The notes under the pieces were generated by a model, which was given only the letters and a program-made list of their open reading frames with translations, searched no databases and was not told where the DNA came from. Position numbers and translations under genes: made by a program. Below are positions 25,736 to 40,852 of a stretch of 64,000 nucleotides of DNA, piece after piece. Source of the stretch: a virus. The DNA is taken from IMG/VR virus record IMGVR_UViG_3300036770_006954, positions 107,630-171,629 of that record; one strand, 5' to 3'. Numbering within the stretch: position 1 is the first letter of the stretch; each line of letters begins with the position of its first letter.

Positions 25736-25739
25736 TTTG

Positions 25740-25825: not shown

Positions 25826-25990
25826 TTACATTAAATCGGGATTGTCATCATCACCATCAGATAATGTATTTAAAATGCTTGGTAGAAATAATGCCATCAA
25901 TGACCACCAAGGATTACTGAAATGATAAATAATATATCCTATAAGGGCTATGTATGCAAGTCCTAAAATAAGAATGGCGAAGTGTTTCAT
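25826..25990 (-). CDS. Small membrane protein
   Basis: MKHFAILILGLAYIALIGYIIY...; ATG overlaps the upstream stop. Confidence 0.55.
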   Translation of the reverse strand: MKHFAILILGLAYIALIGYIIYHFSNPWWSLMALFLPSILNTLSDGDDDNPDLM

Positions 25991-26864: not shown

Positions 26865-27025
26865 CGGTGTATTTCTTTATAATGATTTTCGTAGTAATTT
26901 AAAGTCATCAGATGTCCTGATTTGTCATAAACCGCCTCTTGAAAAGTTTCGTAATGGTTAACATGGACGTTTGATACAACAACCCAATGTAATTGGTCCG
27001 ACAGGTTTGGTTTTTTATTGTACAT
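26861..27025 (-). CDS. Small hypothetical protein
   Basis: MYNKKPNLSDQLHWVVV... Confidence 0.5.
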   Translation of the reverse strand: MYNKKPNLSDQLHWVVVSNVHVNHYETFQEAVYDKSGHLMTLNYYENHYKEIHR

Positions 27026-27167
27026 AGTACAACAAAGATACACAAAAAATTAGAACTAAACTAATAAAAGCAATTTTATATGCCCCTTGAATTTTGTGTT
27101 GTGACCTACCTTGCCAATCCTCTTCGTTCCAAGAGTCTTTCCAATTCCCACTATATTTGTTTGCCAT
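27015..27167 (-). CDS. Small membrane protein
   Basis: MANKYSGNWKDSWNEEDWQGRS...TM helix; the longer ORF call overlaps tRNA-Glu. Confidence 0.55.
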   Translation of the reverse strand: MANKYSGNWKDSWNEEDWQGRSQHKIQGAYKIAFISLVLIFCVSLLYYVQ

Positions 27168-27195
27168 ATTGGTATTTTTTACTTTGTTAAACTTG

Positions 27196-27267
27196 TAGCC
27201 CGACGGGGAATCGAACCCCGCTCTCATCCGTGAAAGGGATGTGTCCTGACCGATAGACGACCGGGCC
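27196..27267 (-). tRNA. tRNA-Glu(UUC)
   Basis: CATCC CT-TTC-AC GGATG. Confidence 0.93.
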
Positions 27268-27275
27268 AAATTGGG

Positions 27276-27349
27276 TGGACCATGAGGGATTTGAACCCCC
27301 GACCCCCTGCGTGCAAAGCAGGTGCTCTAGCCAGCTGAGCTAATAGCCC
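27276..27349 (-). tRNA. tRNA-Ala(UGC)
   Basis: CCTGC TT-TGC-AC GCAGG, G3:U70. Confidence 0.93.
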
Positions 27350-27392
27350 TATTTGTTATTACAAATATACAATAAAAAACTAAAAGACCAAA

Positions 27393-28175
27393 TTAGTTTT
27401 TGATTTTTTTATTGAATGTAAAAAGTGGATTTTCACAAAATCGCTGGTCTGTGACATATGCGTTTTCCAATCCCATCATCAAATGCACATCTTGGGGATA
27501 AGAAATGACAGGATATAATTCTCGTAACATCGCATGAAGAGATAAATGTTCTAACCAAAAATAATTTGTAAAAACTTTGATATATTTTTTTGGTACTACA
27601 TTCAATACGTTACCATTAACACGGTTGTAAGTGTTCCAAAACCAAAATTCACTTCCAAGAGATTCCATAAAAGAATCCCTTTCATCCGTGAAAAATCTAT
27701 AATCAGTTTCTGCCCAAAGATAATTCATTTTGTTTTCATCTATGTCTAAAGTAGCTAAGCTTTTTTTGAAATGAGCATCAGCCCTTACAAAAACATAAAT
27801 GTCATAGTCAGGTAATGGTTCTTTTAAATTCAGTAATCTTCCACCACTTCTGAAGTTTCCTGGTCCCCACTTCTCGGGAATTTTGTAATTAAAATATTTT
27901 GTAAGTGTTTTTAAATCTTGGGTTGAAATTTCAGAATATTCAATTGGAATTGATTTATAGTAATCTACAAACTCAGTATAATACTTGTGTTTATTTGTTA
28001 TTAAAACGGTATCTACTTTATATCCTAAAGTTTTCAAAGGTCTTACAATCATTTTTTCGTGATTGTCCTTATTATCTCTCATATCTACCGAATAAGTGTA
28101 GGCACCATCATAATTCAAGACATTTTCTGAATATCCATTTCCAATGTAGATTAATAAACAAGTTTTGTTGAACAT
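27393..28175 (-). CDS. Hypothetical protein, possible glycosyltransferase-like
   Basis: YDIYVFVRAD motif; weak. Confidence 0.45.
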   Translation of the reverse strand: MFNKTCLLIYIGNGYSENVLNYDGAYTYSVDMRDNKDNHEKMIVRPLKTLGYKVDTVLITNKHKYYTEFVDYYKSIPIEYSEISTQDLKTLTKYFNYKIPEKWGPGNFRSGGRLLNLKEPLPDYDIYVFVRADAHFKKSLATLDIDENKMNYLWAETDYRFFTDERDSFMESLGSEFWFWNTYNRVNGNVLNVVPKKYIKVFTNYFWLEHLSLHAMLRELYPVISYPQDVHLMMGLENAYVTDQRFCENPLFTFNKKIKN

Positions 28176-28211
28176 ACTTGCAGTAAAATAGGTATTTTTG
28201 CGGTAAAGTAA

Positions 28212-29177
28212 TTATAATTCCACATTATAAACCTGCACATTAGGACCCATATCCTCTTCGCCGATGGGAAACTCTACTTCTTCCTGAAATTCCTCCCTGT
28301 TAAGTCGAACTGCTCGTGCAATTGGAGGTTCTTCAAAAGATTGTAACTTTTCACGGTCTTTATAAAGGGAATGAGAAGTTAACCACGCATTTTCATTAAG
28401 TTGCCGGTTTGTGAAAGAATCTTTTTCAAACAAGATATTTCTAACTACATCCATAATTGAGTTAGGTAATTCAGACAACATGGAATCAACTCTGTCGTCA
28501 ACCATATTCCAAAAACTCAACTCAGTTTCTTTTTCTTGGTTGTTTCTATAATAAACCGCAACTTTTTTTCCACTAATCTTATTGATACAATATACAAGTT
28601 TTCCATCCTGTGTGTAATTGAAGAAATGACCATGGTAGGTTTCAGAGGCTGTACACCATTTGGTACCATATCCGTATTTTTGAGAAGCCTCGGCGGTGAA
28701 TGGTCGGATAATTAACCATTCATTATCCTCATAATCTTTTAAAACCTGTTTTTGTAGTTTTTTTGAAATGTTCTTGAGTTTAATTAAACTCATTAATGAG
28801 TGGATTTCCGAAATGTCCTTAATTTGTGTGACATCAACATTAGGTAATTGATTGTTTTCGGCGGCTTCCACGAAGTTTACCATTGACCTAACCAATTCAG
28901 AATCTAAAGAGCCTAAAAACTGATAAATTAAAGGGGTTTGCTCGTCTGAAATATTGTCCAAAACCACATGATAGAGTTCACGCAATTCGGTACGAATCTC
29001 ATATAGATGACCCTTTTTTACATTTCTTTGATTGTAATTTTGGGTAAAAAGTTTCACCATCATCGGTGTATACTTGTTGGTTTTACTTGGGTCAAGCATC
29101 ATAATAATATCCAACAAATTCATTTTCATGAAATCGGGAGCTTTTTCTACAATATCCTTTCGTTTTGCCATAATCAA
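28212..29177 (-). CDS. Conserved large-phage protein (YGYGTKWCTA motif)
   Basis: ASQKYGYGTKWCTAS ... FWNMVDDRV. Confidence 0.65.
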   Translation of the reverse strand: MIMAKRKDIVEKAPDFMKMNLLDIIMMLDPSKTNKYTPMMVKLFTQNYNQRNVKKGHLYEIRTELRELYHVVLDNISDEQTPLIYQFLGSLDSELVRSMVNFVEAAENNQLPNVDVTQIKDISEIHSLMSLIKLKNISKKLQKQVLKDYEDNEWLIIRPFTAEASQKYGYGTKWCTASETYHGHFFNYTQDGKLVYCINKISGKKVAVYYRNNQEKETELSFWNMVDDRVDSMLSELPNSIMDVVRNILFEKDSFTNRQLNENAWLTSHSLYKDREKLQSFEEPPIARAVRLNREEFQEEVEFPIGEEDMGPNVQVYNVEL

Positions 29178-29245
29178 TTAATTTATGTAAAGATAAGAAA
29201 GGAACAACTTACAATCAAAGAGTATTTATAATAAGTTATCAAAAA

Positions 29246-31237
29246 ATGCCCACAGCTCGTCCTTTCGCTTTAAACACTGGTAATACTATATCAGGCGCCG
29301 AACAGCTCGGTGATTTGGCTATTGGGTATGCTTCTTATGATTATACCACAAATCCTGGTGGTGTTAGATGGTGGGGTGGACCCGATGAAGACCCTGGGTA
29401 TATTATTTGTTATCCTGTTTATTCTCAAAACCGCCCATCACCCGATGGTCCAATAGGAAGTGTTGGATTCAAGAGGTCAAAACAAAAAACGGAAGAATCG
29501 TTCATCCAAATATCTGAGAATATGTCCAATTTTACCGAGACATTTACCTCAGGTGTTGAAGCCAAACAATGGTTGGTTGATAACGGATATTGGACATCTT
29601 ATATTGGTTCCTCGGCTTATACTCCTACGTGTTTTACAATAGATGGTGGTGTGGGTATTGGAGAAAATGCTTGGGATATAGAATACTCACCAACGTCACA
29701 AGAAATCTATCTGAACAATTTTTCCACTATTGGTGCATATGTCATCGATTCCAATACTTTACAATATAAAGGAACATTACCTGTGACGGGTACATCTGGA
29801 AACGGTCAGTTTGCTATCGACTTAAGTGATAACAAATTGTTTACTGGTCAAGTCAATGGGAATTACATTGTCAAATATGATTTGTCAGGATTACCCGTAA
29901 GTGGAAGAACAATAGATGCTGCAGCACAGCCTTATTCACCAACCAATAACTTTTTCCAAATTGCTTACAACCCTGTACATGATAAGTTATACGTGGCAAA
30001 TAATGATTCTAGAAAACTTTACATTCTCACGGGCTCTAACTTGTCAACTATTGCTGAGATTGACCCACCAACACCCCTTACGGGTGATGATGCCTTTAAT
30101 AATGTGGGTGTGAATACAAACAATGGTAATGTAATCACAACATTCGAGGGAGTTTTTATTGATGGTCAATTTTACAATTATTTTATTATAGACGGTGACA
30201 CAAATGAAATCACTTACACTGGATATACAGGTTCTGGTCTCCAATGGGATAATTTAACCAAGGTTATATTTTCACCTGTAAATAATAAGTTTTACCTCAT
30301 TCAATTTACGATAAGTGCCTTTACGGGTAAAGTTATACAAGTTATTGATGCCAATACTGGTGAATTTATTAAAACAATCAACCTATCTACCGCCAACTCA
30401 AACAATCAACAAACTGCAATCATTTACGATTCATTGAGAAATTACATATGGACACCTGACAGGCTTCTTAAACAGTGGGTTGTTATTGACTGTAACACTG
30501 ATGAAATTGTTCTTACATTCGAAGAAACTTTGGGTTGTGCTGGTTCATACTATGGTGGATTATTTGCAACTTACGATACTCTTAATGATAGAATGGTTGT
30601 TACTGCGGGAAGTTCATTTCAAAAAAAATATTTTGAGTTGTCCGAGATTATACCCTATCCTTATGTAACACCAACGCCAACACCTACTCAAGAATTAACT
30701 TCCACACCTACACCTACACCATCCCAAACGGTAACTCAAACTCCAACACCCACACTTTCAATAACACCAACAAACACACCCACACCGAGCACTAGTCCAG
30801 AACCTGTAACAGGATATTCCTTCAACTTAGTTGCCCTTCCATATAATTTTCCATCGTCAGAAAATTCAATTATGAATGGAGAGCCTAGCGCTACTGAAGG
30901 AAGCACCGAAATTAATGTTTTAGCAAGTGGAGGGAGAGGATTTTACTTCAACAGTATAGATTCGGGAAGTGTGGACAGAACAGATTATTATTCTGCATTT
31001 ACGGGTCAAAGTATAACAATAACATTTAACCAAGCAGGAAATGTTGCAATTTATTCGGGAGATACTAATTCATTCAAGTATTGGGAACAAGCACCGACTG
31101 GTAACGGATTTGTGTTTGGTGAGGGTATTGGAGTACCACCTTCAAACACTCCAAGTGGAACTGCGGTGCTAATACAATCGTCACCAACAAATTATACTAT
31201 TGGGTTACCAGTATTTGTGAGTTTGGTTATAAATTGA
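29246..31237 (+). CDS. Beta-propeller (YncE-like) protein with TP linker, putative virion/receptor-binding
   Basis: Repeats IAYNPVHDKLYVAN, VIDANTG, YDSLRNYIW; TPTPT linker; late motif upstream. Confidence 0.7.
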   Translation: MPTARPFALNTGNTISGAEQLGDLAIGYASYDYTTNPGGVRWWGGPDEDPGYIICYPVYSQNRPSPDGPIGSVGFKRSKQKTEESFIQISENMSNFTETFTSGVEAKQWLVDNGYWTSYIGSSAYTPTCFTIDGGVGIGENAWDIEYSPTSQEIYLNNFSTIGAYVIDSNTLQYKGTLPVTGTSGNGQFAIDLSDNKLFTGQVNGNYIVKYDLSGLPVSGRTIDAAAQPYSPTNNFFQIAYNPVHDKLYVANNDSRKLYILTGSNLSTIAEIDPPTPLTGDDAFNNVGVNTNNGNVITTFEGVFIDGQFYNYFIIDGDTNEITYTGYTGSGLQWDNLTKVIFSPVNNKFYLIQFTISAFTGKVIQVIDANTGEFIKTINLSTANSNNQQTAIIYDSLRNYIWTPDRLLKQWVVIDCNTDEIVLTFEETLGCAGSYYGGLFATYDTLNDRMVVTAGSSFQKKYFELSEIIPYPYVTPTPTPTQELTSTPTPTPSQTVTQTPTPTLSITPTNTPTPSTSPEPVTGYSFNLVALPYNFPSSENSIMNGEPSATEGSTEINVLASGGRGFYFNSIDSGSVDRTDYYSAFTGQSITITFNQAGNVAIYSGDTNSFKYWEQAPTGNGFVFGEGIGVPPSNTPSGTAVLIQSSPTNYTIGLPVFVSLVIN

Positions 31238-31310
31238 GGTCTTGGTCAGATTCGAACTGACGAATAACGCTTTTGCAGAGCGCCCCCTTGAGCCACTTGG
31301 GTACAAGACC
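31237..31310 (-). tRNA. tRNA-Cys(GCA)
   Basis: GCGCT CT-GCA-AA AGCGT, U73. Confidence 0.93.
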
Positions 31311-31313
31311 TTT

Positions 31314-31391
31314 TGGGGTGATTAATGGGTTTCGAACCCACGACCTTCTGAACCACAATCAGACACTCTAACCAACTGAGCTATAATCACC
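31314..31391 (-). tRNA. tRNA-His(GUG)
   Basis: TCTGA TT-GTG-GT TCAGA; G-1 and encoded CCA. Confidence 0.93.
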
Positions 31392-31407
31392 GTATATTTA
31401 CAAATAT

Positions 31408-31992
31408 ATGTATATTTCAGACAAATACCAAATCCAATGGTGGGTACCACCCAGAACTGCAAGTCGGATGACTAGAAAATTTTTAGAAAAATTAAACTTT
31501 AGAGGAGAATGGGGTCATCACACAGTTTATGGTGATTCAACATTCGATGTTTACCTTAACATAAGGAATCCCTACTCAATTGTTGTGTCACTATTTTTTT
31601 TGTCTCGTCAAGCTGAAGGATTAACATTCGAACAATTCGTCAAAAAGTCCAAAGCAGATTACTTGGGGTTCCATAACACTCACTTGTTAGATTATGTTCA
31701 AGCTTTGAAAGATAGAAAATTAAAATTAGTTAAATTAATAAGAGTAGAAAACCTTATCGATGATATGTTATCAATTGATTTCATTCAAAATAATCAAGAA
31801 TTATTGATGGATGAAATTGAAGAACTTAACAAAGGTGTTGGTCCTTGGAGAAGAGGGTATAATCCTGAAGTGTTAAAACCATACTCAGAGTTCTACACAC
31901 AAGAACTTGCGGATATTGTATATCAAAATAGAAAAAAGTATTTTGAGTTTGGTGGATACGACAGAGATTCTTGGAAAACTCTGATAAACTAA
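31408..31992 (+). CDS. Sulfotransferase-family protein
   Basis: PPRTASR (5'-PSB-like), IRNPYSIVVS (3'-PB-like), YSEFYTQELADIV. Confidence 0.65.
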   Translation: MYISDKYQIQWWVPPRTASRMTRKFLEKLNFRGEWGHHTVYGDSTFDVYLNIRNPYSIVVSLFFLSRQAEGLTFEQFVKKSKADYLGFHNTHLLDYVQALKDRKLKLVKLIRVENLIDDMLSIDFIQNNQELLMDEIEELNKGVGPWRRGYNPEVLKPYSEFYTQELADIVYQNRKKYFEFGGYDRDSWKTLIN

Positions 31993-31999
31993 AAAAAAG

Positions 32000-32103
32000 G
32001 TGTCGGGGTAGGAATCCCACCTACAAGCGAGAACAACCATAGAAGGTCTTAATGTTCTCCATCCAAAAAATGGATGTGCCTTTGTCAATTCAGCCACCCG
32101 ACA
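32000..32103 (-). ncRNA. tRNA-like RNA with U-rich anticodon loop and ~35-nt variable arm
   Basis: TGTCGGG/CCCGACA acceptor, CATCC-ATTTTTT-GGATG, GAGAAC..GTTCTC arm, T-arm GTAGG-TGGGATT-CCTAC. Confidence 0.75.
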
Positions 32104-32114
32104 TAATAAGTTTG

Positions 32115-32186
32115 CTCCTCGGGGGAATTACGATATCCCGACCTAACGATTAACAGTCGTTCGCTCTACCTCTGAGCTACCGAGGA
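32115..32186 (-). tRNA. tRNA-Asn(GUU), atypical T-loop
   Basis: AACGA CT-GTT-AA TCGTT; T-loop ATCGTAA. Confidence 0.88.
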
Positions 32187-32211
32187 ATGCTTGGCATGCA
32201 AGATTAAAATG

Positions 32212-32294
32212 TTGGAAGGGACGGATTCGAACCGCCGTACCCGTACAGGAGCAGTTTTACAGACTGCCGGTTTTAACCACTCACCCACCTTCCA
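32212..32294 (-). tRNA. tRNA-Tyr(GUA)
   Basis: GCAGT CT-GTA-AA ACTGC. Confidence 0.93.
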
Positions 32295-32304
32295 TTGTCA
32301 TCTG

Positions 32305-32376
32305 CGGTCTATCACGGATTCGAACCGAGGCTACCTCATAGACAGTGAGGCGTGTTTACCACTACACTAATAGACC
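32305..32376 (-). tRNA. tRNA-Asp(GUC)
   Basis: CCTCA CT-GTC-TA TGAGG (U37). Confidence 0.9.
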
Positions 32377-32466
32377 AAAATAATTAATGATGAGAAATAG
32401 TTTCAAAGAAAGCTATTACCATCTTTTTCAAAAACAACTTAATTTTTTTCATACCAATAAGTATTG

Positions 32467-32572
32467 AAGTCAAGACAGGAATCGAACCTATTTTACCGCG
32501 TACATAGCCTAACACTAAAAGTTCGTTTGACTACCTCTTTAACCTACGATTACGAGCCACTCGCTCTTGACT
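32467..32572 (-). ncRNA. AGUCA-family tRNA-like RNA (106 nt)
   Basis: AGTCAAG/CTTGACT-T acceptor, ATAGG-TTCGATT-CCTGT T-arm, non-tRNA interior. Confidence 0.75.
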
Positions 32573-32577
32573 AAATT

Positions 32578-32645
32578 ACCCGTCTTTCCAGGCTGTCAAC
32601 AACTTATGTGTTAGCCTCACACATCAATCACTAGGTTGTCAGCTT
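32578..32645 (-). ncRNA. Small structured RNA, UGACAGC/GAAAGA motif copy A
   Basis: GACAAC..GTTGTT stem then TGACAG CCTG-GAAAGA-CGGG. Confidence 0.55.
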
Positions 32646-32647
32646 TG

Positions 32648-32732
32648 TAGTCAGGACAGGATTCGAACCTGTAACTTTCGTAGATACCTTTCTGGCTCTC
32701 CCTACTGCGTATTCCTTTTTCGCCACCTGACT
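32648..32732 (-). ncRNA. AGUCA-family tRNA-like RNA (85 nt)
   Basis: AGTCAGG/CCTGACT-A, GCG/CGC D-stem, 16-nt anticodon loop, ACAGG-TTCGAAT-CCTGT. Confidence 0.8.
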
Positions 32733-32778
32733 AAAGTTAGTTTTCGGGACATTGGACAAAACTAACAAACCCTAAAAG

Positions 32779-32918
32779 TAATCGGGGTGGGAATTGAACC
32801 CACTCTAAAGGACGGTCCCTTTCTCAGTCACACAAGGTAATTACTCCTTGCTACACCTACCGTGTAATGCTTTGTGGCCACTCCACATTACCAAATGTCA
32901 ACCATAGACATCCCGATT
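32779..32918 (-). ncRNA. 140-nt RNA with tRNA acceptor stem and T-arm
   Basis: AATCGGG/CCCGATT-A, GTGGG-TTCAATT-CCCAC, multi-hairpin interior. Confidence 0.75.
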
Positions 32919-32923
32919 ATGTT

Positions 32924-33010
32924 GCCTGTCTCTCCAAGCTGTCATACCTCCCTTGTATTCTGTTCTGGCATATAGCCGTTCCTAACGGTAAAGCGGTATC
33001 AAAAACCAGT
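32924..33010 (-). ncRNA. Small structured RNA, UGACAGC/GAGAGA motif copy B
   Basis: ATACC..GGTAT stem then GACAG CTTG-GAGAGA-CAGG. Confidence 0.55.
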
Positions 33011-33013
33011 ATG

Positions 33014-33103
33014 TAGTCAGGACAGGACTCGAACCTGTACGAATGTTCCTTTCCCCGCAGACATAAAGTACAACGGTGCGCCTACCAATTACGCCACCTG
33101 ACT
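33014..33103 (-). ncRNA. AGUCA-family tRNA-like RNA (90 nt)
   Basis: AGTCAGG/CCTGACT-A, GCG/CGC D-stem, enlarged anticodon loop, ACAGG-TTCGAGT-CCTGT. Confidence 0.8.
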
Positions 33104-33111
33104 ATAATAAA

Positions 33112-33313
33112 ATGGAAACCCCCCCTCTACGCTCACCGTAGTTGTGAATTTTACTGGACATAGTTTACTGTCCACCTGTTGCGAGTCGACTGCAGAGCAG
33201 GGTCCATCACAGAGTACCTTGGGGCATGTACAACTTCTTTATGGTTGCGACCCATTTGAAGCCAAGGTTCCTTTCAACGGTGCTAATCCGTCTTCTGTAA
33301 GGAGTTTTTCCAT
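33112..33313 (-). ncRNA. ~200-nt structured RNA of unknown family
   Basis: Closing helix ATGGAAA../..TTTCCAT; internal ACCTTGG/CCAAGGT, ACAGA/TCTGT, TGGACA/TGTCCA. Confidence 0.55.
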
Positions 33314-33317
33314 TTTG

Positions 33318-33415
33318 TGGTGTGAGCGGGATTCGAACCACGCGGCACAGTCTTTTTCACGGACTTGCTCTACCATGGGAGTATCATATGAGTACTCCAC
33401 CTGAGCTATCACACC
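33318..33415 (-). tRNA. tRNA-Phe(GAA) with hairpin inserted in the D-loop
   Basis: GGTGTGA/TCACACC; loop GT-GAA-AA; D-loop contains GGAGTA-CTCATATGA-TACTCC. Confidence 0.75.
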
Positions 33416-33421
33416 TTATTG

Positions 33422-33502
33422 TACAGAGGGTGGGACTCGAACCCACACATCTTACGATACCGGTTCCTAAGACCGGCGCGGCTACCGTTACGCCACCTCT
33501 GC
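33422..33502 (-). tRNA. tRNA-Leu(UAG)
   Basis: CCGGT CT-TAG-GA ACCGG. Confidence 0.93.
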
Positions 33503-33507
33503 ATTGA

Positions 33508-33655
33508 GTTAGTAGTAGTTGACTTTATCAGGAATCCCGCCTAACCCCATTTAAGAAGTCCAGCTTCACACACCATTAGAGAGAGGGTTAATTCTTAGTG
33601 TGTACCCTTGCGATATGCTCTCCCATACCGTCAACCCACGCATTGTACTACCAAC
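33508..33655 (-). ncRNA. ~150-nt structured RNA of unknown family
   Basis: GTTGGTAGTA/TACTACTAAC and GTTGAC/GTCAAC closing helices; first element after promoter 33704-33711. Confidence 0.55.
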
Positions 33656-33673
33656 CGTTTGTTTTTTCCACCA

Positions 33674-33711
33674 TTTCAAAGACCTTTTGTCTTAACAACA
33701 CCACAAATATA
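33674..33711 (-). promoter_or_regulatory. TATATTTG promoter followed by boxA-like GGTCTTTGAAA
   Basis: Motifs read on the minus strand upstream of the ncRNA array. Confidence 0.6.
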
Positions 33712-33725
33712 TGGTAATATTTTTA

Positions 33726-34229
33726 TCAAACCAAATCTTTATGAAAAACTTTTTCTGAATTTTGTTCTACCCAAGACAAACTAATAGAAACATGTTTGGA
33801 AGATTCTTTCTTCGATGATTCAATTTTGGTTTTCACTATTTCCAAAACCTTATCAGTTGTACATTTCCAAATACCATTACAACTAAGTCCATCGTCTTTA
33901 TCAAACAAGGCAAAAAAGAATGCATCGTTTCTTTTAACCCTGTGAAGATTATCTTCATGGATTCTATCAAGTTGAAAACTACCACCTTCTTTACAAGAAA
34001 GGTACTCGTATTTTTCTTTCCCATCTTTAGAATATGCGTCAGCACCATGTTTTGTTTTATGACATTCATGACCAAGAATTTCGGAAACCATCCATTCTTT
34101 AATGAATCCTGGTGTTAACAGGTCTTGTTCAAACCCATTTTCCTTTTTGTATAGGTTTAGAGTCCCTACCAATAGAAGGAGGGGATTTTCTTGTTGTGTT
34201 ACCAAGTCGAGCAATTCATTTTGCGTCAT
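33726..34229 (-). CDS. PD-(D/E)xK restriction-endonuclease-like protein
   Basis: HGADAYSKDGKEKYEYLSCK resembles a PvuII-type active-site segment. Confidence 0.55.
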   Translation of the reverse strand: MTQNELLDLVTQQENPLLLLVGTLNLYKKENGFEQDLLTPGFIKEWMVSEILGHECHKTKHGADAYSKDGKEKYEYLSCKEGGSFQLDRIHEDNLHRVKRNDAFFFALFDKDDGLSCNGIWKCTTDKVLEIVKTKIESSKKESSKHVSISLSWVEQNSEKVFHKDLV

Positions 34230-34244
34230 AGGGTTGTATGTTAG

Positions 34245-34317
<73 letters not shown>

Positions 34318-34363
34318 GTTATGTTGGTAAATTATAGAAAACCGAATCTATAATGTCAAATTG

Positions 34364-34436
34364 TACACCCTGAAGGACTCGAACCTCCGACATCTTGCAT
34401 GTAAGGCAAGCGCTCTACCATCTGAGCTAAGAGTGT
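34364..34436 (-). tRNA. tRNA-Val(UAC)
   Basis: CTTGC CT-TAC-AT GCAAG. Confidence 0.93.
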
Positions 34437-34510
34437 ATTTGCAGGATATCGCTTAACCTGCGGTGAGTGTACCTTTCACCTTGTTCCCTTGCGGTACTAC
34501 GATTTTTTTG

Positions 34511-34616
34511 AAGTCAGTACAGGTACTGCCCCTGTTGCTTGGTCTTTTGCTTAACAGAGTATTATCAATGACACTCTGTGAACCTCACCCACGAGTTACT
34601 TTTACTCTAACTGACT
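34511..34616 (-). ncRNA. AGUCA-family tRNA-like RNA (106 nt)
   Basis: AGTCAGT/ACTGACT-T, GAGT/ACTC D-like stem, ACAGG-GGCAGTA-CCTGT T-arm. Confidence 0.7.
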
Positions 34617-34619
34617 TTG

Positions 34620-34692
34620 TGACCCCACCGAGATTTGAACTCGGAACTCCCATGTTAAAAGCATGGTACTCTAGCCGTTGAGTTATGAGGTC
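34620..34692 (-). tRNA. tRNA-Lys(UUU)
   Basis: CCATG CT-TTT-AA CATGG. Confidence 0.93.
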
Positions 34693-34698
34693 TTTTTA

Positions 34699-34976
34699 TT
34701 AACAAAGAATAACCAGGATTCTGTTTTTAATCTGTCATTAGTCTATTGGCCCCACCTTACCCGACCAGCTCACCGTCATGGGTTGTTTTGGGTTGAATCC
34801 TCGGTGGTTCAACCGATATAAGGTTGTGGACTTATAACTGACCATTATAAGTTTGTTACCTTATATCTCCCACCTTAAGCTGCGATTTCCTGAGTTTCCT
34901 CTATGTTCAACATTTCACACTGTTCAGTGACAATGAACACCTGATTTTATTGAACAAAGCGACAGAACTTTGTTAA
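34699..34976 (-). ncRNA. rnpB: RNase P RNA (compact, phage-encoded)
   Basis: P1 TTAACAAAG/CTTTGTTAA; P2 CTGTCG/TGACAG; P3 TGTTCAA/TTGAACA; CR-I GAGGAAACTCAGGA; CR-IV AGACTAAT; CR-V ACAGAATCCTGGTTA; P4 AAC(U)CAGGA/UCCUGGUU with bulged U. Confidence 0.85.
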
Positions 34977-35387
34977 CTATTCCAAATCCAACATCTGGCG
35001 ATGCGTGATGTTTTTATTAACCTTGATTTCCTTTTTTCGATTCATCAGTTTTCTAACGGTCCACCAATCTTTCGATAGAAAAACCACATAACCTACAAGT
35101 TTTCCCGAGGCATATGGCATTCGATACTCATCCAGGACAGTAATTTGATAAGGAAAAAGATAACCCGATATTTTTTCTTCAATCATGATTTTATAGAAAA
35201 CTACTTTATCGGGACCCATCCGTTTGAAATAAACATCAGGTTTTTCGTGTTTATTGAAATATTCAGTGATAAGACCGTCTTTGATTATCAACTTGGAATC
35301 CCCATCTAAAAAAGAGTAGAATTCAGCAAATCCATGTACAGTAAGAACGATAATAACAAATAAAAGAGTAATAAGAATTATTGTCAT
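34977..35387 (-). CDS. Hypothetical protein with N-terminal TM helix
   Basis: 136 aa ORF. Confidence 0.65.
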   Translation of the reverse strand: MTIILITLLFVIIVLTVHGFAEFYSFLDGDSKLIIKDGLITEYFNKHEKPDVYFKRMGPDKVVFYKIMIEEKISGYLFPYQITVLDEYRMPYASGKLVGYVVFLSKDWWTVRKLMNRKKEIKVNKNITHRQMLDLE

Positions 35388-35486
35388 AGTTGAAAAATTT
35401 AAGAGTTGTTTTCGTTGTTTTCAGGTTTAGGGTTTGGTTCGTCGGATTTAGGTGGAACATTCCACATCTCATCCCAAAAGGTGTAT

Positions 35487-36077
35487 TCACTCATTGTTGT
35501 CAGGTTTAGAAAATGTTTCTTCGGCTTTACCACCAAATTTACTGTTATTATACAAATCATCAAAATCTTTGAATCCCTTTGAACGGGCATAATCGTCGTT
35601 TTTCTTCATTTGAAATGCTCTGATAGTTTCAGGGTCTCTCATCTGGTCGGGTGTTTCAAACCCAAGGGATTTGGTACACTCTTTTTCACACCATTCATGC
35701 GAACCGATTTGAATATGGATTGGTAAATCGGTCTCGAGTGAGTCCATGAAGTCCTCGAACTGATTTGCAGCAATAAACGGCATCGTGTAAATACCCTCAT
35801 CAACAGCATATCCCGATTCATCTTGACTGTCAAAGATTTCAACTCTCCCCATTCGGTATCTTTCACCCATCAAAGAGAATACTCCGTAACCAACAGTTGA
35901 ATAATGAAACCTACCAGGTTCACTGACTCCGTGAAGGTCAATACAACTAGGATTTCGTTCAATCCAAGTTGCGAGATGGTTGGCAATATCTGTATCGTTT
36001 AGTTCAATATTATCCTTTTCAGCATTGTGACGGATGTTAGTTAAAAACCAAGCCAATTTTTTTCTATCTACTTTCAT
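35487..36077 (-). CDS. Hypothetical protein
   Basis: 196 aa ORF. Confidence 0.7.
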   Translation of the reverse strand: MKVDRKKLAWFLTNIRHNAEKDNIELNDTDIANHLATWIERNPSCIDLHGVSEPGRFHYSTVGYGVFSLMGERYRMGRVEIFDSQDESGYAVDEGIYTMPFIAANQFEDFMDSLETDLPIHIQIGSHEWCEKECTKSLGFETPDQMRDPETIRAFQMKKNDDYARSKGFKDFDDLYNNSKFGGKAEETFSKPDNNE

Positions 36078-36155
36078 TTCAAGTCAATATTTCGTTATTT
36101 GAAGCTCAAATGTAATCATTTGTGAGCCGTATCGTTTATGTAAATGAGCCAATTG

Positions 36156-36227
36156 TAGCGTCGGGTGGATTTGAACCACCGACCGTCTCCGTATGAAAGA
36201 GAAGCTCTACCCCTGAGCTACGACGCC
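36156..36227 (-). tRNA. tRNA-Met(CAU), elongator type
   Basis: TCTCT TT-CAT-AC GGAGA; G1:U72 pair, no 3 GC pairs in the anticodon stem. Confidence 0.85.
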
Positions 36228-36230
36228 AAC

Positions 36231-36719
36231 TTAACTAAACTCTGTGGAAGTAGAAACCCGAAGTCCATTAATGTACCCCTCGTGTTTTCGATTCGAAATA
36301 AAAGGATTACGGTCAGGATATTCTTTAAAGTAAGTCTCAATATCCCATCCATCCTCTTGACCCCATTCAAGAGACATTTGGATAAATTCATCAACATTCA
36401 TTTCTCTTCCGTACTCGTCAACGACTCGACCACTTCGGATAAACTCAAAAAGTTCCTCCTTGGTTTTATAGTATTTCGAATCATTCCAGTTCCAAAGGAA
36501 TTTCCATCCACTACTTCGTTTACCTAAGTGAACCTTGGTACCATCCAAGAATTCCTCCCAAGGTGAAACGGAATCCCACTCACCAACTGAGATAGAACGG
36601 AACCCTCGTTCAATTTGAGACGGATTGATTGAATCCATTTCATCAATTCTCATACGGAGCTTTTGCTCTCGTTTAATCATTTCATGTCCTTTCGGAACTC
36701 GATAAAAATTGGTTCCCAT
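36231..36719 (-). CDS. Conserved phage hypothetical protein
   Basis: MGTNFY...HLGKRSSGWKFLW...VDEYG. Confidence 0.7.
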   Translation of the reverse strand: MGTNFYRVPKGHEMIKREQKLRMRIDEMDSINPSQIERGFRSISVGEWDSVSPWEEFLDGTKVHLGKRSSGWKFLWNWNDSKYYKTKEELFEFIRSGRVVDEYGREMNVDEFIQMSLEWGQEDGWDIETYFKEYPDRNPFISNRKHEGYINGLRVSTSTEFS

Positions 36720-36730
36720 AATTGAATAAA

Positions 36731-37357
36731 TTAAGATACAGACGAACCATCCTTACGATAGATTTCCATCGTTGATGATTTACCTCGGTTATCTAAATGT
36801 TCAGAAACTTCAAGAAGTTGGTCTTTGAAGAAAATTCTTGCAATGTAATCCCAATCACCATCAGGAGTATCTACAGAACCACTTTGGTATGAAAAATCTT
36901 TTGAGGTTGGTGTTTCATCACTCTCGAATTCCATTTCATAGATACCACCTTTGTTTTCATCGAAACTAATAAGAATGTTATCAACACCATCCATATCTTC
37001 AGGAATTGCCAAGTAGGATTGATAAGGGTACTTCTCGTCAATTACAGTATCATCACCAACATTCTCATAAATGTCACCCACTTCTTTATCGGTAAATGAC
37101 AGAACTACATTACCTGACTCATCTTCAACCTCAAAAGTAGTTGAACCATTATCCATTGGAGCTGACATGTGAAATAAATCGGGATTGTAAAAGTCTTCCA
37201 AGATTCCTTCATCTTCCAATTCCCAACGAGTTTCAGACAAGTCTTCATATTCATTTTCGTACATGAGTTCTTGAATTCGCTCGACTTGTTCGTCCGAGAT
37301 TGAATGGGCAACGGCTTCCATTTCCCAACCGTACACTTTTAATTTGTATTTTGCCAT
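36731..37357 (-). CDS. Acidic hypothetical protein
   Basis: 208 aa ORF. Confidence 0.7.
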   Translation of the reverse strand: MAKYKLKVYGWEMEAVAHSISDEQVERIQELMYENEYEDLSETRWELEDEGILEDFYNPDLFHMSAPMDNGSTTFEVEDESGNVVLSFTDKEVGDIYENVGDDTVIDEKYPYQSYLAIPEDMDGVDNILISFDENKGGIYEMEFESDETPTSKDFSYQSGSVDTPDGDWDYIARIFFKDQLLEVSEHLDNRGKSSTMEIYRKDGSSVS

Positions 37358-37360
37358 TTT

Positions 37361-37552
37361 TTAGAGAATTTGAGGGTTGTTATTTTGATTAGTTGCGTTG
37401 TGAACAAAATAAGCGGTGAAAAAAATGTTGATACATAAAGATACCCAATCGTAGGTGGAAAGGGTTTCCATATTCGATAAAATCACCATCTTAGCCCCGA
37501 GCCAAAAGGTAAAAAGGTACGCCAATACCTGATAAATCATTTTTTGTGTCAT
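37361..37552 (-). CDS. Small two-TM membrane protein
   Basis: 63 aa hydrophobic; TATCTTTG promoter upstream (37576-37583). Confidence 0.6.
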   Translation of the reverse strand: MTQKMIYQVLAYLFTFWLGAKMVILSNMETLSTYDWVSLCINIFFTAYFVHNATNQNNNPQIL

Positions 37553-37613
37553 AGTTCAAACTTTTAAGTTTATCACAAAGATACAACAAAAAATTTAAAC
37601 CACCAAATGTTAG

Positions 37614-37684
37614 CACGCCCACTAGGACTCGAACCTAGAACAACGGTTTTGGAGACCGTCATGTTACCATTACACTATGGACGC
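37614..37684 (-). tRNA. tRNA-Trp(CCA)
   Basis: ACGGT CT-CCA-AA ACCGT. Confidence 0.93.
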
Positions 37685-37690
37685 ATTTTG

Positions 37691-37762
37691 TAGTTCCTGA
37701 AGGATTTGAACCCTCACCATTTCATCCGTAGTGAAAGATGCTATCCATTACACCAAAGAACC
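37691..37762 (-). tRNA. tRNA-Arg(ACG)
   Basis: TTTCA CT-ACG-GA TGAAA. Confidence 0.93.
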
Positions 37763-37766
37763 ATTG

Positions 37767-37837
37767 TTACCCCGGATAGATTCGAACTACCATTAAATGA
37801 GTCAAAGTCATTTGTCCTGCCCTTAGACGACGGGGTA
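37767..37837 (-). tRNA. tRNA-Gln(UUG)
   Basis: AATGA CT-TTG-AC TCATT. Confidence 0.93.
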
Positions 37838-37842
37838 ATAAG

Positions 37843-37917
37843 TTGGAAAGATAGGACTCGAACCTATGACCTTCTCGGTATCAGCGAGACGCTCTAAACC
37901 AACTGAGCTACATTCCA
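37843..37917 (-). tRNA. tRNA-Ile(GAU)
   Basis: TCTCG CT-GAT-AC CGAGA. Confidence 0.93.
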
Positions 37918-37924
37918 ATTAAAG

Positions 37925-37999
37925 TGGAGAGGATGGGAATCGAACCCATATCTCTGAATTTTCAGTCCAGTGCGTACTGACCAACTGCGCTACCTCTCC
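37925..37999 (-). tRNA. tRNA-Phe(GAA)
   Basis: CTGGA CT-GAA-AA TTCAG. Confidence 0.92.
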
Positions 38000-38006
38000 A
38001 TGGCTA

Positions 38007-38023
38007 CCAATATGTCAAAGAAC
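38007..38023 (-). promoter_or_regulatory. boxA-like antitermination site
   Basis: GTTCTTTGACATATTGG between terminator and first tRNA. Confidence 0.6.
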
Positions 38024-38030
38024 TTAGTAA

Positions 38031-38067
38031 GAAAACAAAAGACCCGAACCTTTTTGGGGTTCGGGCC
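38031..38067 (-). terminator. Intrinsic (attenuator) terminator upstream of tRNA cluster
   Basis: GGCCCGAACC-CCAAAAA-GGTTCGGGTC-TTTTGTTTT. Confidence 0.8.
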
Positions 38068-38095
38068 TCTGTATAGTTTCTTACAAGTACTACAT

Positions 38096-38188
38096 TCAAA
38101 CTCCCAAACCCGCACAACTACGCTGGTACCATTTTACACAAATGATATCAAACATATTGTTAACGAGATTATGAAATAGAGTTTTCAT
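38096..38188 (-). CDS. Putative leader peptide (30 aa)
   Basis: MKTLFHNLVNNMFDIICVKWYQRSCAGLGV*; A-rich start, ~18 nt downstream of promoter; not in ORF track. Confidence 0.65.
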   Translation of the reverse strand: MKTLFHNLVNNMFDIICVKWYQRSCAGLGV

Positions 38189-38206
38189 GTTTTTATAATT
38201 ATACCA

Positions 38207-38237
38207 CAAAGATACAAAAGATTTTTAATCTATCAAA
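38207..38237 (-). promoter_or_regulatory. Bacteroidota sigma70-type promoter of the leader/tRNA unit
   Basis: TTTG-N19-TATCTTTG. Confidence 0.75.
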
Positions 38238-38947
38238 TTCTTTTTATAAATAACCGATAAATATTCACCAAATGGTGGTTCTAATTCTATAGTTGGTTCA
38301 GTATCAAACAATTCGATAATAACTTTTTGCACCTCATCAGTGTAAATATGATTATAATAATCGTGTAAAACAATTACACATTCTTTTTCCATAAATGGTC
38401 TTATTGCATATAAGTCTTGTATAATTTGTTCGGGTGTGTGTCCACCATCTAAAAATAAAAAATCGAAGCTATTGTTAGAATGGTTATGAACAACCTCCAT
38501 AACATCATCAGGACTCCAACCTATTTGTGGATTGACAACATCTTTCAAACGAAAATATTCTATAAGATAATTTACGGATTTGAAACCATCTGATTGATAG
38601 TTAGTTGATTTGTCTTCATAATCTTGGGTATAAACATCTTGTCTCTCCTCAACATAGGCATCCATCGTAACTAATTTTCCACCAGTTTGTTTGAAACCAA
38701 TACCGAGTGCCACAGTACTTACACCAAAAGCGGTCGCTAATTCAAAACCACTCTTCAGATTATATTTAATTATTAAATTTTTTAAAAACTCGAACTCGTC
38801 ATATCGAATTGACAATGGGAAATTATGATTTCCCATTCTGATACAATAATTTTCAATAATATTTTCTTGAAAAGGTTTTCTATATCCATTTATTTTATAT
38901 TCAACAGGTCCCCATTTCAATTTAGGGATTTCAAAAAATTCACTCAT
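38225..38947 (-). CDS. Class I SAM-dependent methyltransferase (Methyltransf_24-like)
   Basis: FELATAFGVST, LVTMDAY, FDFLFLDGGH, IVLHDY. Confidence 0.8.
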   Translation of the reverse strand: MSEFFEIPKLKWGPVEYKINGYRKPFQENIIENYCIRMGNHNFPLSIRYDEFEFLKNLIIKYNLKSGFELATAFGVSTVALGIGFKQTGGKLVTMDAYVEERQDVYTQDYEDKSTNYQSDGFKSVNYLIEYFRLKDVVNPQIGWSPDDVMEVVHNHSNNSFDFLFLDGGHTPEQIIQDLYAIRPFMEKECVIVLHDYYNHIYTDEVQKVIIELFDTEPTIELEPPFGEYLSVIYKKNLID

Positions 38948-38950
38948 AAA

Positions 38951-39220
38951 TTAAAATATAGATGCGGCATCGTCAGATTCAAGTAAAACTTTGATTCCCA
39001 AATATTTTTCACAAACCTCATAAAAGTCTTCAACTTTTGTTTTTGTCAAATCTTGAGGATTTTCGATTGTTAGGTAAAAACCTGATTTAGTTTCAAAAAT
39101 AGAATTTTTTTCGTTGTATTCAAAATAAGCCATTCTTCTGTAACCACGATATTTGGCTTCAGGTAGAAACTTATCAACCATTGTTTGAAATGGTGGATTT
39201 AGAAATGAACCCCTTGTCAT
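38951..39220 (-). CDS. Hypothetical protein
   Basis: Likely start MTRGSFLNPP at 39220, just downstream of tRNA-Ile(UAU). Confidence 0.6.
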   Translation of the reverse strand: MTRGSFLNPPFQTMVDKFLPEAKYRGYRRMAYFEYNEKNSIFETKSGFYLTIENPQDLTKTKVEDFYEVCEKYLGIKVLLESDDAASIF

Positions 39221-39222
39221 AG

Positions 39223-39295
39223 TTGTGTGAATGGGATTCGAACCCATGACCTGAATGGTATAAGCATTCTGCTCTCACCACTGAGCTACCACACA
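39223..39295 (-). tRNA. tRNA-Ile(UAU)
   Basis: GAATG CT-TAT-AC CATTC. Confidence 0.88.
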
Positions 39296-39301
39296 AATTT
39301 G

Positions 39302-39386
39302 TACCGATGGCCGGACTCGAACCGGCACGGACCCTTCGGTCCAAGGGATTTTAAGTCCCTCGTGGCTACCTTTACACCACATCGGC
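39302..39386 (-). tRNA. tRNA-Leu(UAA)
   Basis: AGGGA CT-TAA-AA TCCCT, long variable arm. Confidence 0.93.
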
Positions 39387-39416
39387 AAATAACACTACAA
39401 ATATAAGAATAAATTT

Positions 39417-40121
39417 TTAGAATTCCAACTCCAAAATGGTATCAGATGCCCAACCATCAATATTTTCAATGTAAAAGATGTTTACCGACTTTTCTTCCAA
39501 ATCAAATTCAACACTTCCTTGAGAGCCCTCATTGATTTCCCATCCTCCAGGTAAATTCCTGTCAATAAATGTTTCAACTATCTGAGGCATATCGAATGTT
39601 TCACTAAGTCCAATTAAAGTGTCTGTAACATACCCAGAGTCACCACTACCTTCGAATGCAGTTTTAAGAAATCTAACCTCACTCTCACCTACGACCCGAA
39701 CTAAAGATTCATAAATTTCATCAGGCATTTCTAAGATAAAGACTTGTTCTTCACTCTCAGTCCAATAGTTTAATTCCGCAATTGCGGAAATTTTTCGCTC
39801 TTTTAAGTTCATTATGATAGACAACTGATAATTTGATGCTTCATTTAAACCAACTGTGTCTAATATTTTGTTAAAACTTAGTTCAACCTCAGGTTCAATT
39901 TTTTCTTCATAAAACTTGAAAAGAAAGTCCCTAATTTTTGTTGGTATGTTCAAATCAACACTACCATAATTCATATCAACACCGAAATCATCTTCAGAAA
40001 CATTCAAACCATCCCAAGGATTGTCATCAAAGTTAAATTCCCATCTCAGGTACTTTCTTCCCGTAGATTTTGCATACTTCCACAGAAAATCTAACATCCT
40101 TTGTTCTTCAGGTGTCCACAT
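39417..40121 (-). CDS. Hypothetical protein, C-terminal DUF6878-like
   Basis: FEGSGDSG ... GGWEINEGSQG (from recall). Confidence 0.5.
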   Translation of the reverse strand: MWTPEEQRMLDFLWKYAKSTGRKYLRWEFNFDDNPWDGLNVSEDDFGVDMNYGSVDLNIPTKIRDFLFKFYEEKIEPEVELSFNKILDTVGLNEASNYQLSIIMNLKERKISAIAELNYWTESEEQVFILEMPDEIYESLVRVVGESEVRFLKTAFEGSGDSGYVTDTLIGLSETFDMPQIVETFIDRNLPGGWEINEGSQGSVEFDLEEKSVNIFYIENIDGWASDTILELEF

Positions 40122-40133
40122 AAATTATAAATA

Positions 40134-40487
40134 TCAGTCTGCTGACTCAATTTTTAATGTCCGAGTCATCCAAACTGGTTTTGGATTCTTTTGTAATCCA
40201 ATAATCCATTCTTTTGCTGTTGGGATATAGTTGTTACAATCTTCTTTTACATGTTGTTCCCCAACATAACGAGTGTAAACTGTACGCCCATCTGAGTTTA
40301 CAAAAGAAACTCCAAATACTTTTTCCATTTCAAAAATACCTTCACTATGATGACGGAATATTCTGTGTAAAGAATCTCCGAACCAACTTTTGGTTTCATC
40401 CATCCACTGATGTAGATGATGATAATCCTCAGGTTTCCCCCCAAATTTCCTTGCGGAGGATTTTGAATGTTCGAATGGGTGAGCCAT
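40134..40487 (-). CDS. DUF6915-like protein
   Basis: MAHPFEHSKSSARKFGGKPEDY..HQWMDETK..HRIFRHHSEGIF..GEQHVKED. Confidence 0.6.
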   Translation of the reverse strand: MAHPFEHSKSSARKFGGKPEDYHHLHQWMDETKSWFGDSLHRIFRHHSEGIFEMEKVFGVSFVNSDGRTVYTRYVGEQHVKEDCNNYIPTAKEWIIGLQKNPKPVWMTRTLKIESAD

Positions 40488-40666
40488 TAAGATAGTTGTT
40501 TCACAGTGTATTTGTTTCCACTTAAAGAATTGGATTCAAACAATTTAGCAATTTTATTCGCTTGTTCGAATGTTTCAAATTCCATTGGGATACCCTCACT
40601 ATCATTTACCAAAATTGTCATTTTTTGGTTCAGAAACAAAGTTTCTTTTAAAATAATATAAGACAT
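40487..40666 (-). CDS. Small hypothetical protein (59 aa, below ORF-track cutoff)
   Basis: MSYIILKETLFLNQKMTILVNDSEGIPMEFETFEQANKIAKLFESNS...; stop overlaps the next ATG. Confidence 0.6.
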   Translation of the reverse strand: MSYIILKETLFLNQKMTILVNDSEGIPMEFETFEQANKIAKLFESNSLSGNKYTVKQLS

Positions 40667-40779
40667 AAGTTTAAATACTTGTTACGGTATTACAATAAAT
40701 CATAATCTCAACTTTCAAATCTTGACTGAAAGCAAAAAATAATTCGTTTAAAAATTTTTTCATAGTTTCAAAAATTTTG

Positions 40780-40852
40780 TAGGGATGACAGGGCTCGAAC
40801 CTGCGACCCCCTGGTCCCAAACCAGGTACGCTACCATCTGCGCCACATCCCT
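40780..40852 (-). tRNA. tRNA-Pro(UGG)
   Basis: CCTGG TT-TGG-GA CCAGG; A1-U72. Confidence 0.9.

Follow-up and report, generated by a model that had tools for sequence, protein, structure and literature searches.

The window analyzed here, a 64-kb stretch of DNA, is the final part of a 171.6-kb IMG/VR virus record with a completeness of ~57%. Genes for a portal protein, a T4-like large terminase, and a Lon-like protease lie on this contig as well, and the portal protein and the terminase identify it as that of a phage. The closest terminase matches are 27 to 29% identical and come from an uncultured phage of 484 kb that has been published and from Flavobacterium phages (27% for the latter). Promoters of the Bacteroidota type (TTTG-N17-21-TAnnTTTG) occur 12 times, compared with an expectation of 3.9, and none of 100 shuffles reached 12. 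This enrichment, together with the 27% terminase identity to the Flavobacterium phages, hints at a host among the Bacteroidota.

The minus strand of the window carries, at positions 34698 to 34977, a 280-nt element (counted from the first to the last base of P1) that is homologous to RNase P RNA, the ribozyme regarded as universal in cells, where it trims new tRNAs. The element and its immediate downstream neighbor consist of the following parts.

34698..34977, minus strand: whole RNase P RNA gene (RF00010 end-to-end alignment; 99.6 bits with the covariance model R1, described below)
34977-34968 with 34707-34698, minus strand: P1, GUUAACAAAG/CUUUGUUAAU, 10 bp
34966-34960 with 34737-34731, minus strand: P2, UCUGUCG/UGACAGA, 7 bp
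34902..34959, minus strand: P3, an expanded irregular hairpin of 58 nt (folds alone at -16.1 kcal/mol)
34887..34901, minus strand: CR-I, GAGGAAACUCAGGAA, with the 5' strand of P4 and its bulged U (RF00010 alignment; P4 98% paired in 21 relatives)
34884..34887, minus strand: 5' strand of P5, AAUC, pairing with GAUU at 34796-34799 (100% paired; 4/4 pairs covary)
34876..34882, minus strand: 5' strand of P6, CAGCUUA, forming a pseudoknot with UGAGCUG at 34766-34772 in L17 (92% paired)
34803..34874, minus strand: S-domain remnant, composed of P7, GA, a hairpin, and a linker (P7 89.5% paired in relatives)
34870-34874 with 34803-34807, minus strand: P7, GGUGG/CCACC (4/5 pairs covary; Infernal aligns GGUG/CACC to P7)
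34815-34867, minus strand: stump hairpin inside P7, 53 nt
34808-34814, minus strand: linker GGUUGAA inside P7
34751..34795, minus strand: J5/15 CAA, then P15-P16-P17 with the L15 internal loop (P15, P16, and P17 88-98% paired; every pair covaries)
34754-34756, minus strand: L15 GGU
34737..34744, minus strand: CR-IV, AGACUAAU (J18/2)
34710..34724, minus strand: CR-V, ACAGAAUCCUGGUUA (J2/4 and the 3' strand of P4)
34693..34697, minus strand: spacer AAAAA, 5 nt, from P1 to tRNA-Lys, which is also the 5' leader of tRNA-Lys
34620..34692, minus strand: tRNA-Lys(UUU) with canonical T- and D-loops (RF00005, 63 bits; ARAGORN)

A preliminary description of this locus had proposed a phage homologue of RNase P RNA with a complete C-domain but without CR-II and CR-III, and had suggested a search with Infernal and Rfam models. 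In a search restricted to 901 nt, RF00010 (RNaseP_bact_a) was aligned end to end, with model positions 1 to 367 matching window positions 34694 to 34977 (34.5 bits, E 5e-9), which bears out this proposal. A cmscan of the same 901 nt with 4227 Rfam families returned a single ribozyme match, RF00010 being the clan member returned. The alignment places P1-P5, P7, P15, CR-I, CR-IV, and CR-V, with CR-II, CR-III, and P18 deleted, and all the motifs named in the preliminary description were found on the minus strand at the positions it gave. The score of 34.5 bits lies far under the Rfam gathering score for RF00010 (100 bits). The element was not reported by Rfam at the gathering threshold in the whole 64-kb window, by RF00010 on the whole 171.6-kb record, or by an E-value search over 20 kb, and the short-range search alone detected it. 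The minimum free energy of the element corresponds to a z-score of -4.1, with none of 200 shuffles equaling its folding, and the CR-I 14-mer occurs once in the window (0 expected). A blastn search of the element against 50,697 phage records gave no match. We conclude, with a probability of about 0.7, that the element encodes a viral RNase P RNA that descends from bacterial type A, is truncated in its S-domain, and most likely is active with host RnpA.

The catalytic core comprises P1-P4, CR-I, CR-IV, CR-V, and the bulged U of P4, whose alignment column shows no variation among the 21 relatives. P4 reads AAC-U-CAGGA/UCCUGGUU; its eight pairs and the bulged U are intact. Compared with the usual AAG-U-CCGGG/CCCGGCUU, three pairs have changed in both strands. 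These changes had been described as compensatory, and their recurrence across a covarying viral family (see below) supports that description. In the P5 region, UCAA replaces the usual GCAA and is offset by an A in place of a C. P3, which the Rfam alignment treats as an insertion, is 58 nt long here versus ~10 to 27 nt in relatives with a reliably placed P2. The type A periphery is represented by P5, the P6 pseudoknot, P15-P16-P17, and L15 GGU, which in type A enzymes is the binding site of the tRNA 3' end. According to its placement in alignment A2, GGU stands at L15 in 14 of 16 sequences, the other two having GUA or GUC. P18 is absent between P15 and CR-IV, where there are nine nucleotides (GCCAAU and the first three bases of CR-IV); three relatives (L009, L011, and L017) carry one or two hairpins at the P18 site.

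P8-P14, CR-II, and CR-III are missing, and P7 and one variable hairpin are what is left of the P7-P14 domain. A separate, trans-encoded S-domain piece was not found in the 20-kb RNA island. Besides the stump hairpin, P7 carries a linker of 6-7 nt. The stump hairpin corresponds to the first hairpin of the preliminary description, which was placed correctly; among relatives it varies in sequence and in length (~10-60 nt), and a GAAA loop is frequent in the short members. The preliminary description had taken AGCUUA/UGAGCU as a domain boundary enclosing two plain hairpins in place of the S-domain. We rejected AGCUUA/UGAGCU as a boundary; it is the P6 pseudoknot between J5/7 and L17, which is 92% paired in relatives. 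We also rejected the second hairpin, GGUUGAA/UUCAACC. This complementarity is present in the sequence but clashes with the covarying P5 and P7, and it is 61% paired in relatives versus 60% in shuffles, 188 of 500 shuffles reaching 61%; its bases are assigned instead to the linker, P7, and P5. Because the supposed boundary helix is P6, P7 is kept, and the second hairpin is unsupported, the comparative evidence indicates that the S-domain is truncated to P7 and one variable hairpin rather than replaced. The absence of CR-II and CR-III, seen in the Rfam alignment, stands; the replacement by two plain hairpins does not.

IMG/VR was scanned with a pattern consisting of GAGGAAANTCNGG, a gap, and ACAGAANCCNGNTT, in which the P4 pairing positions were left free. 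The matches were distributed by gap length as follows.

gap 85-114 nt: 7 viral contigs
gap 115-144 nt: 21 viral contigs
gap 145-175 nt: 23 viral contigs
gap 176-206 nt: 15 viral contigs

By this strict pattern scan, the CR-I/CR-V pair at reduced spacing is present in at least 66 IMG/VR viral contigs, a count that includes one probable chance match (L012, in the 145-175 set). The free P4 positions in the matches pair with each other, as G-C, C-G, and U-A or as C-G, A-U, and G-C. We then aligned 21 members of the window's subtype with MAFFT (alignment A1). In A1, 83.5% of the cells are paired, compared with 68.0% in shuffles (0 of 500 reaching the observed value) and 33 to 44% with slid partners, and both sides have changed in 46 of 67 pairs. 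The individual helices in A1 gave the following values.

P4: 98% of cells paired, 3/8 pairs altered on both sides
P5: 100% of cells paired, 4/4 pairs altered on both sides
P6 pseudoknot: 92% of cells paired, 5/7 pairs altered on both sides
P7: 89.5% of cells paired, 4/5 pairs altered on both sides
P15, P16, P17: 88-98% of cells paired, all pairs altered on both sides

Among relatives, the P6 swaps include GCU/AGC, GUU/AAC, GGAAC/GUUCC, and AGAGU/ACUCU. MAFFT misplaces P1 and P2 in about half of the rows (54% and 76% paired), and these two helices were therefore assessed by anchored searches instead. Of the 42 distinct loci listed, which include the window, 29 have a P1-like helix of 8 to 21 bp at 2 to 3 nt past CR-V; the P1 sequences are unrelated between the 29 loci, and in the remaining 13 the best helix is short or elsewhere. 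For P2, the best helices that the anchored search gave in 40 loci comprise 38 distinct sequences; roughly two dozen are at the expected site, and the others, including the window's own, are chance helices. The covariation expected for P1-P4 in homologs was found for P4, together with P5, P6, P7, and P15-P17; the sequences of P1 and P2 are different in nearly all loci that allow their placement.

A covariance model from phage homologs, which had also been suggested, was built for the 3' half of the family (R1). It gave 99.6 bits on the window, the sole copy in the 171.6-kb record, and it matched the published huge-phage genomes LR756511.1 (81.8 bits) and LR756508.1 (44.4 bits); the LR756511.1 copy has a differently re-coded P4 with the bulged U kept. 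At E <= 0.01, R1 had no match in Flavobacterium phage immuto, Microcystis phage Mel-JY01, or phage C48C1, which are among the nearest terminase matches, and none of these matches yielded a cultured relative with the RNA. The RF00010 scores of the relatives range from 46 to 107 bits, with L041 (191 nt, 106.8 bits) and L010 (105.5 bits) above the Rfam cut-off. The window shares with the family a CR-I to CR-V distance of 85 to 206 nt, a P6 of the GCUUAAGG/GGUGAGC type, a hairpin preceded by a purine dinucleotide after P7, and a same-strand phage tRNA array. These comparisons indicate that the RNA belongs to a family that is spread through large phages and whose helices covary.

The gene is oriented as the phage tRNA genes are and lies 5 nt upstream of tRNA-Lys, which agrees with its earlier placement inside the phage's own tRNA array. 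Its start coincides with the stop codon of a 136-aa ORF that has a hydrophobic N-terminus and no family match. No sigma-70-like promoter was found directly upstream of the gene, and the nearest same-strand Bacteroidota-type promoter is at 35564-35534. Among the 41 distinct family loci, 32 have a tRNA within 2.5 kb, and the tRNAs near the RNA are on the same strand in 462 cases and on the opposite strand in 5. In 18 of these loci the start of a tRNA is at most 30 nt from CR-V, or 2 to 9 nt past P1, and in 13 a tRNA has its end no more than 60 nt upstream of CR-I. When the ORFs within 3 kb of the RNA were clustered, no protein family was common to more than 5 of the 41 loci; apart from clade-level synteny, no candidate for a partner protein emerged. 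From the tRNA context of the family loci, the ribozyme is therefore judged to be a unit of the tRNA operon. Since the gene lies only 5 nt upstream of tRNA-Lys, RNase P cleavage of the tRNA-Lys leader would create the 3' end of the ribozyme.

Metatranscriptome contigs from three studies hold the element or close relatives. One RNA-library contig of 257 nt corresponds to 34869-35124 and runs from the end of the upstream ORF into the 5' part of the ribozyme, and two others represent relatives with a short P3. A further contig, of 567 nt, includes portions of a ribozyme resembling L013; at its loose end it matches the tRNA-Arg flank of L013 and L022. These contigs leave parts of a 1.2-kb stretch uncovered and give no ends, strand, or level. 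They hint at expression, but DNA carry-over could also yield them.

The preliminary description had suggested that the RNA might process elbow-deviant substrates. Contrary to this suggestion, 26 of the 27 tRNAs in the window, including the fused tRNA-Lys, have a canonical T-loop of the GTTCRANTC type and the GG of the D-loop, and the element does not seem to be tailored to elbow-deviant tRNAs. CCA follows 1 of the 22 same-strand tRNA genes in the window and N73-CAA follows 12 of them; because the window's tRNA genes lack an encoded CCA, L15 GGU would pair fully only after CCA addition. Other phages of the family encode CCA in all their tRNA genes, and L15 GGU is conserved whether or not a phage encodes CCA. 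No CCA-adding enzyme (PF01743) was found in the 171.6-kb record.

The earlier observation that the window has no rnpA also holds for the whole 171.6-kb record (PF00825; ~57% complete) and is matched by five other large RNA-carrying records, two of them at least 90% complete, in which rnpA was not found either. Because the window's record is ~57% complete, a phage rnpA or another cofactor could sit in the missing part. In bacterial holoenzymes, RnpA contacts the RNA at P2/P3, CR-IV, and CR-V. These elements are intact in the phage RNA, and since no rnpA was found, the use of host RnpA would be the most economical explanation and is plausible.

From these features, the following mechanism can be proposed. 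The ribozyme would be co-transcribed with the small ORF before it and the tRNAs after it, and its 3' end would be made by the RNase P cut at the tRNA-Lys leader. The RNA would fold as a C-domain ribozyme, bind host RnpA, and trim the 5' leaders of the phage's 27 pre-tRNAs and of tmRNA. Without an elbow reader, substrates would be recognized through the acceptor stem, a contact between leader and protein, and the 3' end. The outcome would be an extra RNase P capacity that tracks the expression of the tRNA operon and is independent of continued transcription of host rnpB. In its fullest form, this proposal describes an elbow-blind phage RNase P that is self-released from the tRNA operon and makes tRNA maturation autonomous, either protein-free or with host RnpA; it would follow a substrate rule of its own (acceptor stem, A-rich leader, C74 trailer) that favors phage precursors over those of the host during infection. 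We put this fullest form forward tentatively, as a possibility that is on the unlikely side.

Another explanation is that the ribozyme has been re-targeted and mainly cuts noncanonical substrates, such as the tRNA-like RNAs of the island, tmRNA, or host and phage mRNAs, a reading not far from that of the preliminary description. Loss of the S-domain loosens substrate requirements toward simple hairpin models, which would suit such a role, and the island contains, in addition to tmRNA, weak or long tRNA-like matches at 33318-33415, 33014-33103, and 32648-32732. We nevertheless consider re-targeting unlikely, because nearly all the window's tRNAs are canonical (26 of 27), the fused neighbor is a normal tRNA-Lys, and ordinary tRNAs surround the RNA in 32 of the 41 loci, with many arrays lacking unusual RNAs. 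It is also unlikely that the RNA acts as a sponge, with a C-domain that soaks up host RnpA and thereby stops or redirects host tRNA maturation while being no efficient enzyme itself. The retention of every RnpA-contact element alongside the loss of the substrate-reading S-domain, the failure to find a phage rnpA, and the position of the gene in an operon of a highly expressed type would all be consistent with a sponge, but the positions needed for chemistry are conserved throughout the family (the bulged U of P4, the purines of J3/4 and J2/4, the adenosines of J5/15, L15 GGU, and P6), and a phage with 27 tRNA genes calls for more RNase P activity. Finally, the view that the element is a degenerating remnant of an rnpB captured from a host, or a cellular gene on a wrongly binned contig, is hardly tenable: a low Rfam score (34.5 bits), the size of the deletion, and the occurrence of reduced RNase P RNAs in MAG bins would fit, but the portal and terminase genes are on the same contig, the reduced cellular forms retain a CR-II-like GGGAAAGUGGCACAGAAAC that is absent from the phage type, the phage type accounts for just 2 of 47 MAG hits, divergent helices exclude that the relatives are assembly copies of one sequence, and intact covarying helices in dozens of viral contigs contradict the relic reading.

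In the literature searched, to which subscription journals did not belong, we found no account of an RNase P RNA encoded by a phage or virus. A natural bacterial-type RNA without the elbow reader, conserved in many phages, would test what portion of the enzyme is required in vivo. It would widen the known repertoire of phage translation genes (tRNAs, tmRNA, and aminoacyl-tRNA synthetases) to RNA processing, and it would provide compact ribozymes of 150 to 280 nt for structural and engineering work. Most such genes are missed by Rfam-based pipelines, and the window's copy is invisible at genome scale.

Among known RNase P RNAs, the element most resembles bacterial type A (E. coli M1 RNA, rnpB; RF00010), with which it has in common P1-P6, P15-P17 with L15 GGU, CR-I, CR-IV, CR-V, the bulged U of P4, and the P6 pseudoknot, a hallmark of type A; the presumed partner, RnpA, is also the same. 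It differs from type A in lacking P8-P14, P18, and CR-II/CR-III, whose interleaved T-loops make the contact with the tRNA elbow, and in having a 58-nt P3, three compensated P4 pairs, and a viral gene placed in a tRNA operon.

The type T RNase P RNA of archaea also lacks most of the S-domain and is reported to be catalytically active; it has an archaeal C-domain, a 3-bp P2, and a shortened P15 (PMC3579882). Both RNAs are natural and combine a near-complete C-domain with a specificity domain that is mostly lost. By contrast, the phage RNA has a P2 of 7 bp and a bacterial C-domain with P6 and P15-17, and RF00010 is the clan member reported for it; it arose by an independent reduction. Type T works with Pop5/Rpp30/Rpp29 and is the only RNase P of its cell, whereas the phage RNA is an accessory viral gene.

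Engineered type A ribozymes consisting of the C-domain only (Eco CP RPR) share with the phage RNA a type A C-domain without the S-domain, and they are reported to cleave substrates markedly less efficiently than the full RNA (PMC5839562). Unlike these constructs, the phage RNA is natural, keeps P7 with a stump hairpin, and is under selection in many phages.

The closest published account deals with CPR bacteria and their diverged RNase P RNAs (PMC8172020). The reduced RNAs of CPR/Patescibacteria and Elusimicrobia (PMC8172020; L045-L091 in our set) resemble the phage RNA in being short, in missing peripheral helices, and in often falling below standard thresholds. The cellular reduced forms of Elusimicrobia and Patescibacteria, however, keep the CR-II-like GGGAAAGUGGCACAGAAAC, reach high scores (140.7 bits for L046, 249 nt), and represent the genome's own essential copy, unlike the phage RNA. 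The two phage-type RNAs among the 47 MAG hits of the same pattern are L058 and L072.

The published 595-kb phage LR756511.1 (locus L097), whose record is without annotation, carries a mini RNase P RNA in which P4 is re-coded throughout (AG-U-UCGACG/CGUCGGCU). This RNA was missed by the CR-I/CR-V pattern scan and also by the Rfam bacterial type A model, RF00010, at E <= 0.001.

L097 1515-1715 (-), mini RNase P RNA

Among the 22 same-strand tRNA genes of the window (24052-40852), nearly all encode C74, only one is directly followed by CCA, and in 12 the discriminator is followed by CAA. The CAA trailer also predominates in the related phages L002, L007, L013, L020, L022, and L029. A perfect consensus promoter lies inside the array. 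The window also contains more copies of the Bacteroidota-type promoter motif TTTG-N17-21-TAnnTTTG than expected, 12 sites against 3.9 (0 of 100 shuffles reached 12); four of these sites are listed as examples. This enriched motif often stands immediately 5' of tRNA blocks, a hint that the phage host belongs to the Bacteroidota.

34359-34331 (-), TTGACA-17-TATAAT promoter between tRNA-Val and tRNA-Met
38237-38207 (-), Bacteroidota-type promoter motif
31432-31401 (-), Bacteroidota-type promoter motif
27392-27362 (-), Bacteroidota-type promoter motif
35564-35534 (-), Bacteroidota-type promoter motif

One tRNA of the window was assigned a four-base anticodon by ARAGORN and scored only 35.3 bits with the tRNA model RF00005; it may resemble a frameshift suppressor or be unusual in some other way. 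Two other phages with a mini RNase P RNA, L032 and L035, each carry a CUA-anticodon tRNA, labelled Pyl by ARAGORN; these tRNAs may act as amber suppressors in recoded phages. The window also encodes a phage tmRNA (84.6 bits), which was not called by ARAGORN. Three long, low-scoring tRNA-like RNAs (38-41 bits), flanked by canonical tRNAs, overlap separately noted tRNA-like RNAs whose acceptor stem carries AGUCA. The tRNA island further encloses a match to the freshwater-1 RNA motif (RF02979; 66 bits, under the gathering score of 72; E 1.7e-13), a motif without known function.

24991-25067 (+), tRNA with four-base anticodon (UAAU)
L032 2041-2114, CUA-anticodon tRNA
L035 3246-3318, CUA-anticodon tRNA
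22273-22683 (+), tmRNA
32648-32732 (-), long tRNA-like RNA
33014-33103 (-), long tRNA-like RNA
33318-33415 (-), long tRNA-like RNA
33149-33211 (-), freshwater-1 motif match

CR-I/CR-V pairs 260-290 nt apart, the spacing of full-length type A RNAs, were present in 52 IMG/VR viral contigs (L123-L174), several of which measure 370-497 kb. The pairs may mark full-size RNase P RNAs encoded by some phages, or they may lie in host flanks of proviruses. Nine Elusimicrobia MAG contigs (L045, L046, L060, L065, L066, L068, L070, L075, and L083) carry short RNase P RNAs in which CR-II, an S-domain element, is retained; that of L046, for instance, is 249 nt long and scores 140.7 bits. These are probably the cells' own genes.
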